A DNA stretch of 47,773 bases from an uncultured Bacilli bacterium. Lineage in GTDB: Bacteria > Bacillota_I > Bacilli_A > RF39 > UBA660. The notes under the pieces are model-generated. The model worked only from the letters and a program-made list of their open reading frames with translations. It was not told the origin of the DNA and made no database searches. Both the position numbers and the translations under genes were made by a program. Numbering within the stretch: the stretch's first letter is position 1; each line of letters starts with the position of its first letter. Positions 5,865 through 11,436 of the stretch are shown one piece after another. The DNA is taken from assembly GCA_947628065.1 (NCBI GenBank), contig CANQYK010000003.1:1-47773 (forward strand), written 5' to 3'.

Positions 5865-6482
5865 ATGAATTATAAAGATTATAATGATTATGAGCTTCTC
5901 TATTTAATAGAGGAAGAGGATGAAGATGCTTTTGCTTTATTAGAAAAAAAGTATATGCCTTATATTTATAAAGAAGCCCAAACATATTATAAATTATTAA
6001 GTAGTTATGATTTACAAGCGTTATCTTTTGAAGAATTAATTAGTATTGGAAAAACAACGCTCCATCGTACGAGTAAGTGTTTTGATGAGAAAAAGAATAT
6101 TCTTTTTTATACTTATTTTATAAATTGCTTAAGAAATTCCTTTTCTGTTTATCGTAGATCTTTGTTTAGTAAGAAAAATTATATGTTTTCTGCACGACCT
6201 AAAGAATATGATATTGAAGATGTGCTTCCATTAAAGGAGTTAGAAAAAAATAAGAATCCATTGTTTCTTTGTGAAAAGAGAGAAGAAGAGGATGTCCTTT
6301 ATCAATTTATAGTTGATTTAGAAGGGCTAGATCGTTATATTTTTGAACTTTATTATAATGGATTTCGAAATCGTGAAATTGCAGTTTTATTGGATGTAAC
6401 GGTAACACTTGTTAACAGAGTTGTCTATAAAGTGAAACAAAAATTAAAGAAAAGGCTAGAAAATTATAGCAAAGTAGGATAG
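5865..6482 (+). CDS. alternative sigma-70 family factor (SigH/ComX-like)
   Basis: Region 2-like segment (FD....FYTY) and C-terminal HTH (GFRNREIAVLL); occupies the conserved sigH position after cysS-mrnC-rlmB. Confidence 0.75.
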   Translation: MNYKDYNDYELLYLIEEEDEDAFALLEKKYMPYIYKEAQTYYKLLSSYDLQALSFEELISIGKTTLHRTSKCFDEKKNILFYTYFINCLRNSFSVYRRSLFSKKNYMFSARPKEYDIEDVLPLKELEKNKNPLFLCEKREEEDVLYQFIVDLEGLDRYIFELYYNGFRNREIAVLLDVTVTLVNRVVYKVKQKLKKRLENYSKVG

Positions 6483-6494
6483 AATAAAGATAGG

Positions 6495-7181
6495 GTGAGT
6501 ATAGTGGAGAGAACAGTGAAAAATTGGCAAGAAGAATACCATGAAATAGAAGAGTACCAGAGGGTCTTTTATCTTATGGATTCAACTATGAAATACATTC
6601 ATGAAAATAATTATCAGATTGCAAATTTTGATGGCAATGAAATTATTCTTGGTTTTGATGATCAGACAAAAGAAATTAATTATGTTTTGTATCAAAGTCT
6701 TTTACCTTTTTCAAATGAAGCTGTAGAAGAGATGCATCGAAATATTTATAATCTTGCTTTTTTAGCAATCGGAATTTATAGTTCAACCCTTCCTTATTTA
6801 AAACCAGAGTTTTTAAAGGAAAATTTTAGTCAATTTGAATATTCTCTACCAAAAGATGATATTCGCTATTACCGGGATGTGATTACTAGAAATAATTACT
6901 TTTATTATAGTGATTTTGTAAATGCTCGAAATGAAAGAGAAATAAATACCATCAATAAGGATCTTGAGAAATTAGATGGGAATGGTTCTAGTAAAGGAAG
7001 AAGTATGACAAAAGCAACTGTAGCAGGGCGTTATATGAGTGATGCTTATGATCATGCTTTTACAAGTGATGATAATAAGACAGCTGCTTTTGTAACTAGA
7101 TTTGTATTATCCTTTATTATTATTGCACTTAGTTTATTGATTCCAATTATGGCATATATTTTTGGAATGATAGGAAAGTAA
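6495..7181 (+). CDS. hypothetical protein with C-terminal membrane anchor
   Basis: 228-aa ORF ending in a hydrophobic helix (FVLSFIIIALSLLIPIMAYIFGMI). Confidence 0.7.
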   Translation: MSIVERTVKNWQEEYHEIEEYQRVFYLMDSTMKYIHENNYQIANFDGNEIILGFDDQTKEINYVLYQSLLPFSNEAVEEMHRNIYNLAFLAIGIYSSTLPYLKPEFLKENFSQFEYSLPKDDIRYYRDVITRNNYFYYSDFVNARNEREINTINKDLEKLDGNGSSKGRSMTKATVAGRYMSDAYDHAFTSDDNKTAAFVTRFVLSFIIIALSLLIPIMAYIFGMIGK

Positions 7182-7211
7182 AAGACTGCTTCAAATGGAA
7201 GTAGTCTTTTT
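7181..7211 (+). terminator. intrinsic terminator (second copy at ~7895-7925)
   Basis: AAAGACTGCTTC-aaatg-GAAGTAGTCTTTTT hairpin directly after the stop codon. Confidence 0.8.
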
Positions 7212-7268
7212 CCTAGAAAAACTAACAATATTCTTTTCCTTTTATTAGAAATAATAAAGGAAAGAAAT

Positions 7269-7374
7269 AAAAAAGTACCGAATCATCTTTCAAATAAAGA
7301 TTAAGTAAACCAAGTTATTCAAAATACTTAATCCAATGGGAGATGATTTTTTGCTTAAGATTACTCTTAAGCTA
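7269..7374 (-). ncRNA. candidate antisense antitoxin RNA, type A copy 1
   Basis: Minus-strand promoter TTGACC-17-TACGAT with TG extension (7408-7380), 5' hairpin GCTTAAGA-GTAA-TCTTAAGC, and 3' hairpin with U6 overlapping a 5'-truncated, frameshifted toxin copy. Confidence 0.6.
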
Positions 7375-7460
7375 TACTAATCGTATCATAGGTTTTCTTA
7401 TTGGTCAATTTTTTTGCGTTATTTTATATACGGGAAAAGCTTAAATTTATAATTGTTCGA

Positions 7461-7489
7461 TTGTATTTTTTGTTTGCTTTTGTTAGAGT
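7461..7489 (+). promoter_or_regulatory. promoter of toxin mRNA B1 (copy at 8176-8204 for B2)
   Basis: TTGTAT-17bp-TAGAGT with TG extension; the predicted start (~7496) coincides with the segment that pairs with the mRNA 3' end. Confidence 0.6.
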
Positions 7490-7578
7490 GAATTTATGGA
7501 GTATCTGGTTAGTTGTACTTCCTCCCTTTTTGAATAAATATTTTAAATTTTAACTTTTAAATGGGAGGTGGTAGTTTT

Positions 7579-7695
7579 ATGGGAATTTTAATATTATTTT
7601 TTCTTGAAAAACTAACTAACATTCTTTTCCTTTTGTTAGAAATAATGAAGGAAAAGAATAAAAAAGTACCTAATCACCATCCTACAGAAGATTAG
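7579..7695 (+). CDS. 38-aa hydrophobic peptide, candidate type I toxin (MGILILFFLEKLTNILFLLLEIMKEKNKKVPNHHPTED)
   Basis: Strong RBS GGGAGGTG (7563-7570) complementary to upstream CCTCCC (7521-7526); hydrophobic N-terminal half and lysine-rich tail. Below the ORF-track cutoff. Confidence 0.75.
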   Translation: MGILILFFLEKLTNILFLLLEIMKEKNKKVPNHHPTED

Positions 7696-7775
7696 GTACA
7701 ACAACCAAACATCTTGGAAGTACCTAACCTCAGGGGGTAGATACTCCTTTTTATTGTATGAGATTTCTCTCATCT
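7660..7775 (-). ncRNA. candidate antisense antitoxin RNA B1
   Basis: Minus-strand promoter TTTACA-17-TAGAAT with TG extension (7810-7782), 5' hairpin ATGAGA-GAAA-TCTCAT, terminator GTACCTAATC/GATTAGGTAC plus U6 inside the 3' end of the peptide ORF. Confidence 0.7.
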
Positions 7776-7908
7776 ACTTGCATTCTATCATAAAAGAACT
7801 TGCTTGTAAATAGAAAAATTTGTCTGATCCTTTCTTATTATTGCTCTTAGTTTGTTGATTGCAATTATAGAATATATTTTTTGTTAGGAAAGAAAAGGAC
7901 TGCTTCGA

Positions 7909-8019
7909 ATGGAAGTAGTCTTTTCCCTAGATAAAATTACCAACATTCTTTTCCTTTTATTAGAAATAATGAGGGAAAAGAATAAAAAAGTACCTAATCA
8001 TCTTTCGAATAAAGATTAA
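7909..8019 (+). pseudogene. 5'-truncated toxin paralogue (MEVVFSLDKITNILFLLLEIMREKNKKVPNHLSNKD); frameshifted equivalent at 7195-7304
   Basis: Homologous to the 38-aa peptide from codon ~8 onward but lacks the promoter, leader and RBS; its ATG lies in the terminator loop. Confidence 0.6.
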
Positions 8020-8089
8020 GTAAAACAAGTTATTCAAAATACTTAATCCAATGGGAGATGATTTTTTGCTTAAGATTACTCTTAAGCTA
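7984..8089 (-). ncRNA. candidate antisense antitoxin RNA, type A copy 2
   Basis: Promoter TTGACC-17-TACGAT (8123-8095); same hairpins as copy 1. Confidence 0.6.
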
Positions 8090-8293
8090 TACTAATCGTA
8101 TCATAGGTTTTCTTATTGGTCAATTTTTTTGCGTTATTTTATATACGGGAAAAGCTTAAATTTATAATTGTTCGATTGTATTTTTTGTTTGCTTTTGTTA
8201 GAGTGAATTTATGGAGTATCTGGTTAGTCGTACTTCCTCCCTTTTTGAATAAATATTTTAAATTTAAAATTTTAAATGGGAGGTGATAGTTTT

Positions 8294-8410
8294 ATGGGAA
8301 TTTTAATATTATTTTTTCTTGATAAACTAGTCAATATCCTTTTCCTTTTATTAGAAATAATGAAGGAAAAGAAGAAAAAAGTACCTAATCAACCTTCAAG
8401 CAAAGATTAG
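8294..8410 (+). CDS. 38-aa hydrophobic peptide, candidate type I toxin (MGILILFFLDKLVNILFLLLEIMKEKKKKVPNQPSSKD)
   Basis: Paralogue of 7579-7695 with intact frame, same RBS and anti-RBS, and synonymous or conservative changes in the hydrophobic part. Confidence 0.75.
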   Translation: MGILILFFLDKLVNILFLLLEIMKEKKKKVPNQPSSKD

Positions 8411-8490
8411 GTACAATATACAGTATTTTGGAAGTACCTAACCTCAGGGGGTAGATACTCCTTTTTTATTGTATGAGATTTCTCTCATCT
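8375..8490 (-). ncRNA. candidate antisense antitoxin RNA B2
   Basis: Promoter TTTACA-17-TATAAT with TG extension (8525-8497), GAAA-capped 5' hairpin, terminator hairpin plus U6. Confidence 0.7.
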
Positions 8491-8625
8491 ACTTGCATTA
8501 TATCATAAAAGAACTTACTTGTAAATAGAAAATATGTTTGACTACAAATTGAAAATGTGGTAAAGTAATTGTGGTATTTCCAGTAATATGTGTTATACTT
8601 AAAACTTGAGGAAGGTGTAGTATTT

Positions 8626-11436
8626 ATGGATAAAATTATTGTAAAAGGAGCTCGTGAAAACAACTTAAAAAATGTTAATATTGAGCTTCCGAAAAATAAA
8701 TTAATCGTTATGACTGGAGTAAGTGGTAGTGGGAAAAGTAGTTTAGCATTTGATACCATTTATGCAGAAGGACAACGTCGATATGTTGAGAGTTTATCTG
8801 CTTATGCAAGACAGTTTTTAGGTGGAACGGATAAACCAGATGTTGATTCTATTGAAGGTCTTAGTCCTGCTATTAGTATTGATCAAAAAACAACGAGTAA
8901 GAATCCTCGTAGTACGGTTGGAACGGTAACAGAGATTTATGATTATTTAAGACTTTTGTTTGCAAGAATTGGGATTCCTTATTGTCCTAGACATCATATA
9001 CCGATTAAAAACCAAAGTGTAGAAGAAATCGTAGATAAAGTATTAGAATATCCAGTGGGCAGTAAACTTATTATTTTGGCACCTGTTATTTATGGTGAGA
9101 AGGGTACCCATAAAGAATTGTTATCGGATCTTGTAAAAGAAGGTTATGTTCGTGTTCGAGTCAATGGAGAAATGTATGATTTATCCGATACAATAGAACT
9201 TGATAAAAATAAAAAATCAAATATTGAGGTTGTAGTTGATCGTATTGTTATAAAAGAAGATATCAGGTCAAGATTAAGTGAGAGTATTGAAAATGCACTT
9301 AAATTAGGGCATGGTAAGGTTGTTGTTTCTTATTTAGGTGACAAAGAAGTTATCTATTCCGAAGATTTTGCGTGTCCTTATTGTGATTTTTCTCTTCCTG
9401 AATTAGAGCCACGCATCTTTAGTTTTAATGCACCGTATGGGGCTTGTCCTGATTGTAAAGGATTGGGTGTAAAACTTCAAATTGATAAAGATTTGGTTAT
9501 CCCAAACAAAGACTTAAGTTTAGAAGAGGGATGCATTAAAACATTAGGGGATGATATTGAAAGTATTTATTATAAGCGATTAGAATGTATGTGTAAGCAC
9601 TATAAAATTAGTACCAAAAAACCATTTAAGAAATTAAGTGCGAAGGAACAAGAACTTATATTATACGGAAGTGATGAACTGATTCATTTTAACTACAAAT
9701 CAAAAAGTGGAAATATTACGGATCAAGTGGATTATTATGAAGGAATTGTTCGTAATTTGGAGCGTCGTTATATGGAAACTTCAAGTGCTTGGATAAGAGA
9801 ATGGTTAGAACACTATATGGTAGAGCACGTTTGTGAGACTTGCCATGGCTCACGCTTACAAGATAGTATCTTATCCGTTCTTGTTGGTGGAAAAAATATT
9901 TATGAAGTTACTTGTATGAGTATTAAAGATTTGATTGTTTTCTTTGATCGGTTAAAACTTGGTGAAGAAGAAGCAAAAATTGCAGATTTACTATTAAAAG
10001 AAATTAAATCTCGTCTTGATTTCTTAAAGAATGTTGGACTAGAGTATTTAACACTTGCTCGTAGTGCAGGAACTTTATCAGGTGGGGAAGCCCAGAGAAT
10101 AAGACTTGCGACTCAAATTGGTTCTCGTTTAACGGGTGTTTTGTATGTATTAGATGAGCCAAGTATTGGACTTCATCAAAGAGATAATGAAAGACTGATT
10201 AACTCTTTACTTGAAATGCGTGATTTGGGAAATACTTTGATTGTAGTAGAACATGATACGGATACGATGCTTGCAGCTGATTATTTGGTTGATGTAGGAC
10301 CCAAAGCAGGGGATAAAGGAGGAGAGATTGTTGCTTGTGGAACACCAGATGAGGTAATGAAGAATGAAAACAGTTTGACGGGTCGTTATTTAAGTGGGAA
10401 AGAATGTATTGAGACACCGAAAAAAAGAAGAAAAGGTATTGGTAAATATATAACTATAAAAGGTGCGAAACAAAATAATTTAAAAGATATTGATGTAAAG
10501 ATTCCTCTTGGTACGTTTACTTGTATTACTGGAGTAAGTGGTAGTGGGAAAAGTAGTTTGATCAATGAAATCTTAGTTAAGAGTGCTTCAAAATATTTAT
10601 ATAATAGTAAAGTGGTACCTGGATTACATGATAAAATATTAGGATTTCAAAACATTGATAAATTAGTTGATATCTCCCAGAGTCCAATTGGAAGAACGCC
10701 TAGAAGTAATCCTGCTACTTATACGGGTGTTTTTGATGATATTCGGGAACTTTTCACCAATACGAAAGAAGCTAAAATGTTAGGTTATGAAAAGAATCGT
10801 TTTTCTTTCAATGTAAAAGGAGGACGATGTGAAGCTTGTCGTGGTGATGGGGTTAAAAAAATAGAGATGCATTTCTTACCAGATGTTTATGTGCCTTGTG
10901 AGGTTTGTCATGGAACAAGATACAATAGAGAAACACTTAATATTCGGTATAAAGGAAAGAATATTGCCGATGTTTTAGAGATGCGTGTAAGCGAAGCTTT
11001 GGAATTTTTTTCCAACCATCAAAAAATAAAAAAGAAATTACAAGTACTAGAAGACGTTGGTCTTGGATATATTAAATTAGGACAAAGTGCACCAACATTA
11101 TCAGGTGGAGAAGCAGAACGGGTGAAATTAGCCAAAGAATTACAAAAGAAAGCAACGGGTAAAACCTTATTTGTACTAGATGAACCAACAACGGGACTTC
11201 ATAGTGATGACATTAAACGCCTACTTGCAATTTTACAAAAAATAGTAGATAATAAAGATACGGTAATTGTCATTGAACATAATCTTGATGTTATTAAATG
11301 TGCAGATTATATTATTGATTTAGGTCCAGAAGGTGGTGACGGAGGAGGTTCTGTTGTTACCTGTGGAACGCCGGAGGAAGTTAGTAAAGTAGAAAAATCC
11401 TATACAGGTGCTTTCTTGAAAAAGATGTTAAAATAG
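8626..11436 (+). CDS. uvrA: excinuclease ABC subunit A
   Basis: KGARENNLK, two GVSGSGKSS Walker A motifs, LSGGEAQR signature, zinc fingers; start at ATG 8626 behind GAGGAAGGTG. Confidence 0.98.

Follow-up and report, generated by a model that had tools for sequence, protein, structure and literature searches.

Four peptide/antisense modules in a tandem array before uvrA

The gap before uvrA in the window – the whole stretch of 47,773 nucleotides analyzed here – contains four peptide/antisense modules, A, B, C and D, of which A is frameshifted and three are intact. The original prediction had placed two modules in this gap, around two 38-aa ORFs (7579-7695 and 8294-8410). Both ORFs exist, but a 122-nt coding unit is present four times (7192, 7583, 7907 and 8298), and two modules had been overlooked. 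Repeat comparison also identified a 715-bp tandem duplication that the original prediction had missed (7100-8532, forward strand; units 7100-7817 and 7818-8532). Each unit consists of the 3' end of a 228-aa gene (or a decayed copy of it), an A/C-type module and a B/D-type module; the duplication also took in the final ~80 nt of the 228-aa gene, which lies upstream. Between the units, a 300-nt repeat at a spacing of 715 is 96% identical, and identity per segment ranges from 83% to 100%. Tandem Repeats Finder reported no repeat in the array because the 715-bp period exceeds the program's limit of 500.

The same site lacks the array in six relatives, and the array is therefore an insertion. Nine sequencing runs were found to hold the locus – all of them DNA (rabbit gut plus one other label, from three studies) and none RNA. 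Reads of four DNA runs bridged the A-to-B junction in two other samples, in which contigs are broken at the repeats; the 715-bp duplication was not bridged by reads of four DNA runs, with contigs ending at the repeats.

Module B has a sense promoter at 7461-7489 (forward strand; TTGTAT-17-TGtTAGAGT) whose spacing is the same in copies on contig C31 of this genome. A promoter had been predicted for each ORF, and sites are indeed present before B and, at 8176-8204, before D, but both are weak, scoring 8/12 and falling below the threshold of the promoter scan. The predicted toxin mRNA of module B (7496-7755, forward strand) folds with a 5' arm at ~7498-7522, a 3' arm at 7716-7747 and a U-run at 7748-7752. 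An anti-SD, CCUCCC (7521-7526, forward strand), would pair with the SD GGGAGGUG at 7563-7570. The MFE structure (-74.8 kcal/mol, z -5.27) contains both this SD/anti-SD helix and a 5'-3' helix that closes the molecule, the latter absent from the original prediction. As had been predicted, the ribosome-binding sequence GGGAGGTG lies upstream of ORF B (7563-7570) and ORF D (8278-8285), followed in each case by 8 nt and then the ATG. ORF B in the ORF list (7579-7695, forward strand; 38 aa, MGILILFFLEKLTNILFLLLEIMKEKNKKVPNHHPTED) has a best 19-aa Kyte-Doolittle mean of 2.12.

The antisense RNA gene of module B (7652-7810, reverse strand) has a promoter at 7810-7782 (TTTACA-17-TAGAAT, 10/12, with TG). 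The predicted RNA (~7775 to 7658) is ~118-120 nt long, in keeping with the ~115-nt RNA with a GNRA-capped 5' hairpin that had been proposed: its 5' end, AUGAGA-GAAA-UCUCAU, forms stem-loop SL1 with a GAAA loop (7773-7758). SL2 is complementary to the mRNA 3' arm, and the 3' end is a 10-bp hairpin (7699-7666) with U6 that lies within the last 12 codons of ORF B. The RNA has a fold z of -3.9, and a covariance model of the antisense family, R1, matches the gene with 80.9 bits (E 1.7e-11). The original prediction likewise placed the end of the antisense RNA inside the 3' end of the ORF. The hairpin is not part of the MFE fold of the RNA and was not listed by a simple terminator scan because its loop is 14 nt; that it is a terminator is probable from its homology with canonical terminators in related modules.

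Module D has the same layout. Its sense promoter (8176-8204) and predicted mRNA (~8211-8470), both on the forward strand, come with arms and SD/anti-SD as in B and an arm duplex of ~-30 kcal/mol, and the ORF list gives a 38-aa ORF D (MGILILFFLDKLVNILFLLLEIMKEKKKKVPNQPSSKD; 8294-8410, forward strand). The antisense RNA gene (8367-8525, reverse strand; promoter 8525-8497, TTTACA-17-TATAAT, 11/12, with TG) has a predicted RNA of ~8490 to 8373, with the terminator hairpin present in the MFE fold and an R1 score of 86.2 bits (E 2.2e-12). The minus-strand promoters facing B and D, correctly described as convergent and near-consensus, rank as the top two of all promoter-like sites found by the scan. 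The total of such sites shows no enrichment (17 vs 12.7 +/- 3.9 in shuffles); that of terminator-like sites does (4 vs 0.7 +/- 0.8).

The peptide ORF of module A is a remnant (7195-7304, forward strand), out of frame in our own reading of the sequence through a 1-nt deletion relative to C; the site is a repeat copy at 72%, and no ORF of at least 20 aa starts there. Antisense RNA gene A (7262-7408, reverse strand) retains a promoter (TTGACC-17-TGaTACGAT, 7408-7380, 9/12), a 5' hairpin (GCUUAAGA-GUAA-UCUUAAGC) and a degenerate terminator in the ORF's end. Module C has a 36-aa ORF in the ORF list (MEVVFSLDKITNILFLLLEIMREKNKKVPNHLSNKD; 7909-8019, forward strand) whose start codon lies within the loop of a -19.5 kcal/mol hairpin, and we found neither a 5'-3' helix nor a recognisable sense promoter of its own. 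Its antisense RNA gene (7977-8123, reverse strand; promoter 8123-8095, 9/12, with TG) has a GUAA hairpin and gives no R1 match. We rejected A and C as full modules: the closing helix is absent, with values of -11.7 and -12.5 kcal/mol where shuffles give -14.4 +/- 3.3. Without a 5' arm, and in A also without the reading frame, they look like decaying copies.

A family of sense/antisense modules under selection

We gathered 120 distinct modules from gut Bacilli MAGs. The 5'-3' helix is kept in all of them despite unrelated sequences, and cognate arm duplexes have a mean of -33.9 kcal/mol (26 units), compared with -12 to -16 for cross-type duplexes and -9.7 +/- 3.4 for shuffles. Across 17 mRNAs of three sequence types, the 33 pairs in four helices are 95.0% paired (30.7-45.7% when slid), and both-sides changes occur at 21 of the 33 (0-5 when slid); the anti-SD covaries with the SD as the third of the four helices. 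None of 500 shuffles matched the covariation result on four of five measures (pairing, two both-sides-change measures and the covariation score), while the fifth, further standard pair types, was reached by 470. By prediction the SD is mostly paired (median unpaired probability 0.17). An internal loop, asymmetric and 6 nt or longer, interrupts the closing helix on its 3' strand in 97 of the 120 modules, and 52 of 120 crude folds place the complement of this loop in a hairpin loop. Most sequence types have no good local hairpin before the U-run of the mRNA.

The original prediction called for conservation of the ORF frame, and the frame is conserved: pN/pS is 0.31 in the ORF frame compared with 0.58 and 1.43 in the other frames (31 distinct CDS, 126 pairs, which, like those behind the covariation, are related and not independent events), and differences at the three codon positions number 428/271/601 in the same set. 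At the level of sequence, these comparisons show that the sense/antisense modules are real genes.

Much of this could also be read as a structured RNA or DNA repeat, MITE-like or a selfish non-coding RNA, in which the ORF is incidental to AT-rich sequence. The arms do form a long inverted repeat around ~200 bp, copies are many and in tandem, and random ORFs in an AT-rich genome are rich in F, I and L. Such a repeat is nevertheless improbable, given that the constraint is confined to the ORF frame, that a strong SD stands at fixed spacing with a covarying anti-SD, and that both promoters lie outside the inverted repeat yet are conserved with it. G-U pairs, moreover, favour one strand – in our own reading the class-2 SL1 AUGAGG/CUUCAU pairs on the transcribed strand only – and different species share the peptide classes although their third codon positions vary.

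The promoters are conserved as well. At a fixed distance, a sense promoter scoring at least 9/12 is present in 86 of 120 modules (6 of 120 shuffles) and an antisense promoter of at least 9/12 in 77 of 120 (10 of 120 shuffles), with TG in 110 of 120. Across the family the hexamer match of the antisense promoter is higher than that of the sense promoter in 38 modules, equal in 32 and lower in 50.

The antisense RNA consensus, built from 59 diverse copies, has three stem-loops with double changes at 17 of 21 pairs. A covariance model of this RNA was among the checks proposed with the original prediction, and ours, R1, gives 17 matches in the window's own genome (1.55 Mb) – a family size that the prediction had not foreseen – and up to 26 in relatives. 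Within the genus, R1 matches 50 of 53 genomes; it also matches 3 of 13 other genera of the same family and 0 of 137 genomes from 25 other families. This restricts the modules to one taxonomic family and supports the suggestion of a family new to this lineage. All eight R1 matches on contigs C18 and C54 of the same genome have an SD and a family-type ORF; among 20 sampled matches elsewhere, 14 pass for SD, ORF and helix and two more have family-type peptides. The carriers come from rabbit, ruminant, chicken, mouse and human gut samples.

A hairpin pattern, TATGARRTTTCYYTCAT, was rejected as a family marker. It matches 24 of 53 genus genomes but misses modules with other SL1 stems, and it also marks CptI-like repeats (12 of 63 units), a different locus class; the covariance model took its place. 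In a viral collection the hairpin pattern matched three contigs, none of the three with a module. A GAAA-capped hairpin is also found in sister species on CptI-like type III antitoxin repeats that precede a CptIN toxin gene.

Among 103 distinct peptides of the family, 97 have K or R within the first six residues, and the median uncharged run is 17 aa. The median length is 27 aa, with most relatives at 22-33 aa; the window peptides are longer (36-41 aa) because their reading frame continues across the antisense terminator hairpin. Their Kyte-Doolittle means are 1.71-2.38. In B and D the family's basic motif at the N terminus is missing, and the hydrophobic stretch is interrupted by E/K/N. The window peptides are atypical, C-terminally extended members, which the original prediction had not recognized.

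No named toxin family matched the peptides, as had been suspected. Pfam and NCBIfam gave nothing over cut-off for the peptides, Rfam release 15 gave nothing at gathering score (best E 0.86), and ESM Atlas returned no usable match. Among 5.8 billion proteins, a 44-aa ORF matched only itself and copy D, both from the window, and the profile search proposed as a check found, among 1.84 billion representative proteins, only the window's own ORF. Unit B had no blastn match in phages and plasmids. Literature searches turned up no account of the family, though the supplementary tables of Fozo 2010 and T1TAdb may list its predicted ORFs. ORFs of 20-40 aa are passed over by gene callers, which makes type I systems difficult to detect.

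Short, cationic, hydrophobic peptides would also suit an exported or lytic function, such as that of a leaderless bacteriocin or a holin-like peptide directed at competitors or serving lysis, with the antisense RNA as a safety catch. We regard this as very improbable: in the loci read, immunity, transporter and lysin genes do not adjoin the modules, a phage context is lacking, and the copy number and tandem arrays would be unusual for bacteriocin loci.

A better candidate is a harmless small membrane protein, a regulator or subunit whose level the antisense RNA merely tunes, so that the gene pairs are real and encode no toxin. The evidence that the genes are real fits this too, the modules lie in core chromosomal regions, and searches of phage, plasmid and viral collections yielded none. 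We still think it unlikely. The 17 paralogues in a 1.55-Mb genome, together with the frequent tandem copies, variable sites, decayed copies and orphan antisense genes, form a pattern of selfish or addictive modules and not of a subunit gene. The mRNA, moreover, is built silent – closed, with the SD paired – and three devices restrain a single 25-aa peptide.

[quoted passage not shown] As in type I systems generally, a small (<~60 aa) hydrophobic peptide is encoded on a short mRNA, and the antisense gene has, at the sequence level, its own promoter and terminator and complementarity to the mRNA. The type I modules of C. difficile likewise combine small hydrophobic peptides and convergent antisense RNAs in a low-GC Gram-positive host; Pfam, NCBIfam and Rfam gave no family match between these modules and the window.

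In the Gram-positive type I systems treated in sections of PMC4147584 and PMC8594479, the two RNAs overlap at their 3' ends. TxpA/RatA and BsrG/SR4 of B. subtilis share with the window a convergent antisense RNA over the 3' end of the toxin mRNA; their overlap is given as ~100-120 nt, far from the ribosome site, with degradation by RNase III proposed (PMC4147584, in the part on these systems). In the window the predicted overlap is 7658-7755, or ~95-100 nt, comparable with the ~100 nt or more of the Bacillus families, and in B and D it also reaches the end of the ORF, as the T1TAdb article states in its passage on the TxpA/RatA and BsrG/SR4 families (PMC8594479). Canonical members of the new family differ in that the overlap stops at the stop codon. 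They differ further in that a 5'-3' helix closes the mRNA and the antisense RNA would target the 3' strand of this helix, a feature that the relevant sections of PMC4147584 and PMC8594479 do not describe for TxpA/RatA or BsrG/SR4. Searches linked neither the peptide (Pfam, NCBIfam) nor the RNA (Rfam) of the window family to these systems by sequence. Prophage or skin elements carry the Bacillus loci, whereas the window-family modules lie in core regions.

On binding, SR4 also extends a helix in which the SD is hidden, according to the account of BsrG/SR4 in PMC4147584. In our modules the predicted mean unpaired probability of the SD is 0.17 with the antisense RNA bound, compared with 0.21 without it, and 92 of the 120 show a decrease. 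A minor possibility, weakly suggested by these predictions, is that antisense binding would free the 5' arm and tighten SD sequestration as SR4 does.

The par locus of pAD1 (Fst; RNA I/RNA II) and the Fst/Ldr superfamily share several features with the modules: convergent promoters, an intramolecular helix in which the outermost 5' end of the mRNA is sequestered (5'-UH), a stem-loop hiding the SD (5'-SL), complementary hairpins as the likely first contact, and the frequent occurrence of tandem or chromosomal copies in Firmicutes (as set out in portions of PMC7472228). Unlike in par, the two RNAs of a module do not share a bidirectional terminator; that of the antisense RNA is situated ~95 nt upstream of where the mRNA ends, and in module B the hairpin at 7699-7666 sits ~50-90 nt upstream of the sense U-run at 7748-7752. 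We saw no DRa/DRb-type repeat with a second complementarity to the start codon region; the antisense RNA is similar to the mRNA 5' arm, not complementary to it, and its length is ~120 nt compared with ~40 in par/Fst. The Fst/Ldr peptide signature is a tryptophan before the charged tail together with PXXXG. W and a PXXXG-type motif are absent from four peptides of this genome (three in the window, one on C31) and, by eye, from most of the 103 family peptides, and Pfam gave no Fst or Ldr match.

A closed full-length toxin mRNA is otherwise characteristic of hok/sok (plasmid R1) and aapA/IsoA (Helicobacter pylori), which share with our modules the 5'-3' long-distance lock, the sequestered SD and covariation, and whose local hairpins have a possible counterpart here in transient folds formed during transcription (PMC6733600, in the passages on these mRNAs). 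In those Gram-negative systems the antisense gene is internal to the mRNA, close to its 5' part, and translation is switched on by trimming of the 3' end. The window family differs: the antisense gene spans the 3' UTR, extending in the window over the last ~12 codons, and its RNA would target the 3' arm of the lock itself, while the anti-SD is local and outside the long-distance helix. The likeness to hok and aapA is one of mechanism, not of descent. Taken with these comparisons, the modules probably represent a new type I toxin-antitoxin family that combines a Gram-positive-style 3' overlap with a hok/AapA-like closed mRNA. The comparative data establish the anatomy, conservation, covariation and coding constraint of the modules at the sequence level; from these we infer transcription, toxicity, RNase III dependence and an order of steps, as follows.

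Proposed mechanism and significance

The sense gene would produce an mRNA of 225-290 nt for a small, single-helix membrane peptide. Its first ~30 nt are predicted to pair with the final ~35 nt and so close the molecule, while the adjacent anti-SD pairs with the SD; with the mRNA closed and the SD paired, a stable full-length mRNA with little translation is therefore to be expected. The convergent promoter would yield an antisense RNA of ~120 nt consisting of SL1 (GAAA-capped, at the very 5' end), SL2 and SL3 (the intrinsic terminator), fully complementary to a ~95-nt stretch of the mRNA 3' UTR that takes in the 3' arm of the closing helix. Being complementary to the 3' arm, the antisense RNA therefore has the same sequence as the mRNA 5' arm and must compete with it.

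We propose that the SL2 loop first contacts the ~7-nt unpaired internal loop on the 3' strand of the closing helix, that strand invasion then opens the mRNA, and that RNase III – which the genome encodes (236 bits vs a cut-off of 166) – would cut the long duplex so that no toxin is made. Should the supply of antisense RNA fail, the stable mRNA would be translated and the peptide would damage the membrane.

A bolder joint reading, which we hold only tentatively and consider doubtful, is that the antisense RNA mimics the mRNA 5' end and opens the mRNA by toehold displacement, with the GAAA hairpin as a common antitoxin handle. Toehold-mediated displacement at the internal loop would convert a sealed, nuclease-proof mRNA into an open duplex substrate. 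The GAAA-capped 5' hairpin and A-rich linker might serve as a handle on all ~20 type I antitoxin RNAs of one genome and, in sister species, on the CptI-like type III antitoxin repeats as well, through which one RNase or RNA-binding protein could stabilise or destroy all of them at once. Such a handle, if real, would mean genome-wide coordinated control of toxin release.

If the type I reading is correct, an uncultured, small-genome family of gut Bacilli carries one of the densest type I toxin-antitoxin loads known. The genome of E. coli O157:H7 Sakai, for comparison, is 5.5 Mb. Its 26 loci of six families are quoted as the record in the part of Fozo et al. 2010 that deals with them (PMC2887945). 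The family would also join two designs so far described apart, a 3'-overlapping antisense RNA and a 5'-3' locked mRNA, with covariation strong enough to steer experiments directly. About a hundred natural, mutually divergent mRNA/antisense pairs would then be available as candidate orthogonal RNA switches.

The array between the 228-aa gene and uvrA

The original prediction placed two 38-aa ORFs in an apparently empty region before uvrA. Both ORFs are present (B, 7579-7695; D, 8294-8410), but the region is not empty: a 228-aa gene (6495-7181) and uvrA (8626-11436, with Pfam UvrA domains) are separated by 1.45 kb of modules, each pairing a gene for a predicted small membrane peptide with a putative convergent antisense RNA gene. 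A repeat search identified a 122-nt unit that occurs four times (7192, 7583, 7907 and 8298) and a direct duplication of 715 bp (300 nt at 96% identity); there are therefore two module types, each in two copies, which we call A, B, C and D. The duplication also copied the last ~80 nt of the 228-aa gene, and this copy has decayed (7818-7881 versus 7100-7163, 88%). ORF C (7909-8019) encodes an intact 36-aa paralogue, and in module A one base is missing and the reading frame is broken (sequence read by eye).

Divergence between the repeats (window 7100-8532) is uneven – identity is 100% over an 87-nt spacer and the sense promoter, 97-99% in the antisense promoters and just 88-90% in the peptide ORFs, with 8 of 38 residues different between the B and D peptides. 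This pattern points to partial gene conversion or to diversification of the peptide and terminator loop. Modules A and C lack the helix between the mRNA 5' and 3' arms described below (duplexes of -11.7 and -12.5 kcal/mol versus -14.4 +/- 3.3 for shuffles), and a hairpin of -19.5 kcal/mol, immediately 3' of the upstream gene or its copy, has the start codon in its loop. We read A and C as putative decaying modules. Two contigs from other rabbit-gut samples (X5 and X6) each carry two 1-nt insertions in the frameshifted module A (window 7211-7226), after 7211 in both, after 7223 in X5 and after 7226 in X6; this indel variation fits a decaying copy.

Expression signals, RNA folds and peptides

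The ribosome-binding site originally proposed, GGGAGGTG, stands upstream of both the B and D ATGs at a gap of 8 nt, and the facing promoters proposed for B and D prove to be the two best promoter-like sites of the scanned region (10/12 and 11/12; the extended -10 TG is present in each). Modules A and C are likewise faced by promoters of their own (9/12, TG present). The antisense RNA had been described as starting with a GNRA-capped hairpin and terminating inside the 3' end of the ORF; the one predicted for B does both, with a 5' end of AUGAGA-GAAA-UCUCAU and a 10-bp hairpin plus U6 reached within the last 12 codons. The antisense terminator is formed in the MFE fold of D, and in that of B an alternative pairing prevails. 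The A and C antisense RNAs start at the 5' end with a GUAA-capped hairpin. At B and D the canonical -10 box is degenerate, and a weaker TGtTAGAGT lies 25 nt downstream (read by eye).

The predicted B mRNA (about 7496-7756) has a fold z of -5.3: its 5' ~25 nt pair with its 3' ~32 nt, a closing helix absent from the original prediction, and CCUCCC pairs with the ribosome-site GGGAGG. The genome has another array on contig C31, with three intact 41-aa copies and one broken copy. The predicted mRNA of this array folds as B does (z = -7.0), with a compensatory change between the two folds (ACUUCC/GGAAGU to ACUUUC/GAAAGU).

In a DNA search of relatives, only the block made up of the antisense promoter and 5' hairpin gave matches. 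The hairpin pattern matched 24 of the 53 genomes of the genus (64 matches versus 3 with a reversed control) and, scanned over one genome per species, at least 118 stretches. Among the matches listed, 66 of 118 stretches contain one or more modules, and script extraction gave 120 distinct modules and 103 distinct peptides. Three sequence-unrelated types have the closing helix: cognate arms pair at a mean of -33.9 kcal/mol (26 units), versus -12 to -16 kcal/mol with arms swapped between types and -9.7 +/- 3.4 for shuffles. Covariation was examined in 17 mRNAs aligned with MAFFT, whose sequences are related and whose events are not independent. RNAalifold recovered the closing helix (in two parts), an anti-SD/SD helix and a hairpin after the ORF; 95.0% of cells are paired, versus 30.7-45.7% when slid, and both sides have changed in 21 of 33 pairs among these related mRNAs, versus 0-5 when slid. 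On four of five measures none of 500 shuffles equalled the mRNA values; the fifth, further standard pair types, was equalled by 470 of the 500.

Promoters scoring at least 9/12 precede the sense RNA in 86 of the 120 modules (6/120 shuffled) and the antisense RNA in 77 (10/120 shuffled; TG in 110/120), and the distance from promoter to RNA start is fixed for both. Fifty-nine diverse copies of the antisense RNA share three stem-loops, SL1 (GAAA loop, 5' end), SL2 and SL3 (the terminator), with double changes in 17 of the 21 consensus pairs.

The 103 distinct peptides from the matches listed have a median length of 27 aa (range 18-49) and a median uncharged run of 17 aa, with K or R among the first six residues in 97 and among the last three in 71; a typical peptide runs from M-x-K-K/R-D/E-F through a hydrophobic helix to K(K). 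In canonical modules an A-run is followed immediately 3' by the stop codon (read by eye), and because the antisense terminator, on the opposite strand, has its U-tract in this A-run, the C-terminal lysines are dual-coded. The frame of B, D, C and the C31 copies runs on through the terminator hairpin, appending ...KKVPNHHPxED (read by eye). The lysine-rich tail originally noted is thus present in B and D, but as read-through of the hairpin; the N-terminal basic motif is missing from both (read by eye). Both peptides are as hydrophobic as claimed (best 19-aa Kyte-Doolittle mean 2.12 for B and 2.38 for D) and by this mean still in the membrane range. Conservation of the ORF frame, proposed as a test, was found: pN/pS is 0.31 in frame versus 0.58 and 1.43 in shifted frames (31 distinct CDS, 126 same-length pairs).

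Distribution and genomic context

The covariance model of the antisense RNA suggested with the original prediction was built (R1, 126 positions) and has 17 matches in the window's genome (E up to 0.01): two on the window contig (B and D), three on C31, four each on C18 and C54, one on C63 and three on C13. All eight C18 and C54 matches have an SD and a family-type ORF, the C63 match has an ORF with a GTG start, and those on C13 are one intact module and two remnants; the A and C antisense genes gave no R1 match. Within the genus R1 matches 50 of 53 genomes (E up to 1e-3), with a maximum of 26 per genome. At E up to 1e-5 it was found in 3 of 13 other genera of the family and in 0 of 137 genomes from 25 other families of the class. 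Fourteen of 20 matches sampled from 20 other genomes have an SD, a hydrophobic ORF and a closing helix (-25 kcal/mol or better); two others have family-type peptides and four fail a crude script.

Nearly all of the hairpin-pattern matches listed lie in MAGs of uncultured Bacilli from the guts of rabbit, human (Hadza), goat, sheep, roe deer, chicken and mouse; Candidatus Coprosoma intestinipullorum and Firmicutes bacterium CAG:822 are among them. Also among the matches listed are 'uncultured Muribaculaceae' MAG records (L083, L084, L119, L120, L135, L157 and L178), the first five of which contain typical modules of the Bacilli family; mis-binning of these contigs, or mislabelling of the records, may explain this.

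Housekeeping genes lie upstream of the array – cysS, a Zn peptidase, mini-RNase III, a SpoU methylase and a 205-aa ORF, then the 228-aa gene, which is kept in 51 of 53 genus genomes. In six relatives read, what lies between the 228-aa gene and uvrA is at most a 91-aa ORF on the minus strand (HU-like by eye), and never a module; the array is therefore a lineage-specific insertion. The 228-aa gene has a hydrophobic C-terminal segment and no Pfam family, and always stands behind a ~200-aa gene, likewise without a Pfam match, in the cysS/mini-RNase III/SpoU methylase cluster (the two genes span window 5865-7181). Given where sigH lies in Firmicutes, the two might encode a sigma factor and its anti-sigma factor.

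Sister species have arrays at different sites, for example between M50-like peptidase and response regulator genes (named by eye), and these include orphan antisense genes without an ORF. Orphans with promoter, SL1, SL2 and terminator, and with the toxin ORF missing or truncated, occur at L011 1036-1180 and on C13 (L223 1011-1264); one orphan lies immediately 3' of a neighbouring gene's stop codon. Phage and plasmid collections yielded no module copy, and none of three pattern matches in viral contigs is a module. The C31 array adjoins a 180-aa response-regulator-like gene (L006 2556-3098, minus strand), whose C-terminal part may be Spo0A-like, judging by the motif SRVERAIRHAIE. A conserved ~11-nt motif, TACG(A/G)GAAAAG, separates one unit's antisense promoter from the next unit's sense promoter (window 7426-7441 and 8141-8156; L006 905-925 and each unit border; L011 about 1215-1230, opposite orientation). 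Its orientation is the same in units of the window, of C31 and of 'type III' and is reversed in 'type II' units; it may bind a protein or be a scar of recombination.

Proposed mechanism and known systems

The folds show an mRNA that is closed on itself, with the SD mostly paired (median unpaired probability 0.17). The antisense RNA can pair with ~95 nt of the mRNA 3' UTR, 3' arm included, and for this reason resembles the 5' arm. In 97 of the 120 modules the 3' strand of the closing helix has an internal loop with at least 6 unpaired nt (median 7, versus 2 on the 5' side). The SL2 loop would touch this internal loop; the antisense RNA would then invade, displacing the 5' arm; and RNase III, which the window's genome encodes, would cut the resulting duplex, as proposed for txpA/RatA and bsrG/SR4 (PMC4147584). 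Antisense binding lowers the mean predicted SD unpaired probability from 0.21 to 0.17 (lower in 92/120 modules), so a further, SR4-like tightening of SD pairing is weakly supported. The loop complement is placed in a hairpin loop in only 52 of the 120 crude folds.

In line with the original impression that the peptide is not recognisable as a named toxin family, no Pfam, NCBIfam or Rfam family matched, and the literature, searched without supplementary tables, yielded no description of the module family. T1TAdb has 24 families, and according to its paper (PMC8594479) the antisense RNA of Gram-positive families lies on the 3' side, partly overlapping the mRNA, a layout to which the new family conforms. 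It does not conform to Fst/Ldr, which requires PXXXG, a W ahead of the charged tail, DRa/DRb and a bidirectional terminator (PMC7472228). The 5'-3' lock is the hallmark of the hok and aapA mRNAs of Gram-negative bacteria (PMC6733600); par RNA I has a smaller analogue in its 5'-UH.

This promoter, with its GAAA-capped 5' hairpin and A-rich linker, also occurs in sister species ahead of two tandem ~50-nt repeats in place of a type I antisense RNA (L031 1500-2185; also L044 and L051); the repeats have a predicted stem, pseudoknot-like 3' pairing and no Rfam match. At these three loci the repeats are followed by a 162-aa type III toxin gene of the CptIN family, identified with NCBIfam NF047359 (139 bits, cut-off 90, E 9.5e-41) and tblastn. 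Repeats alone occur at L030, L042, L045, L046, L048, L053, L091 and L169, and away from the three toxin loci the repeats adjoin an SDR-like or a desulfoferrodoxin gene. Given the common promoter, hairpin and linker, antitoxin RNAs of two toxin-antitoxin types therefore share one expression cassette.

The original observation holds and is enlarged, with four modules instead of two, a closing helix and 17 R1 matches in the genome. As far as sequence reaches, layout, covariation and coding constraint support its interpretation as a type I toxin-antitoxin-like module. Among systems of this known kind the modules appear to form a new family, in which known regulatory devices are newly combined.
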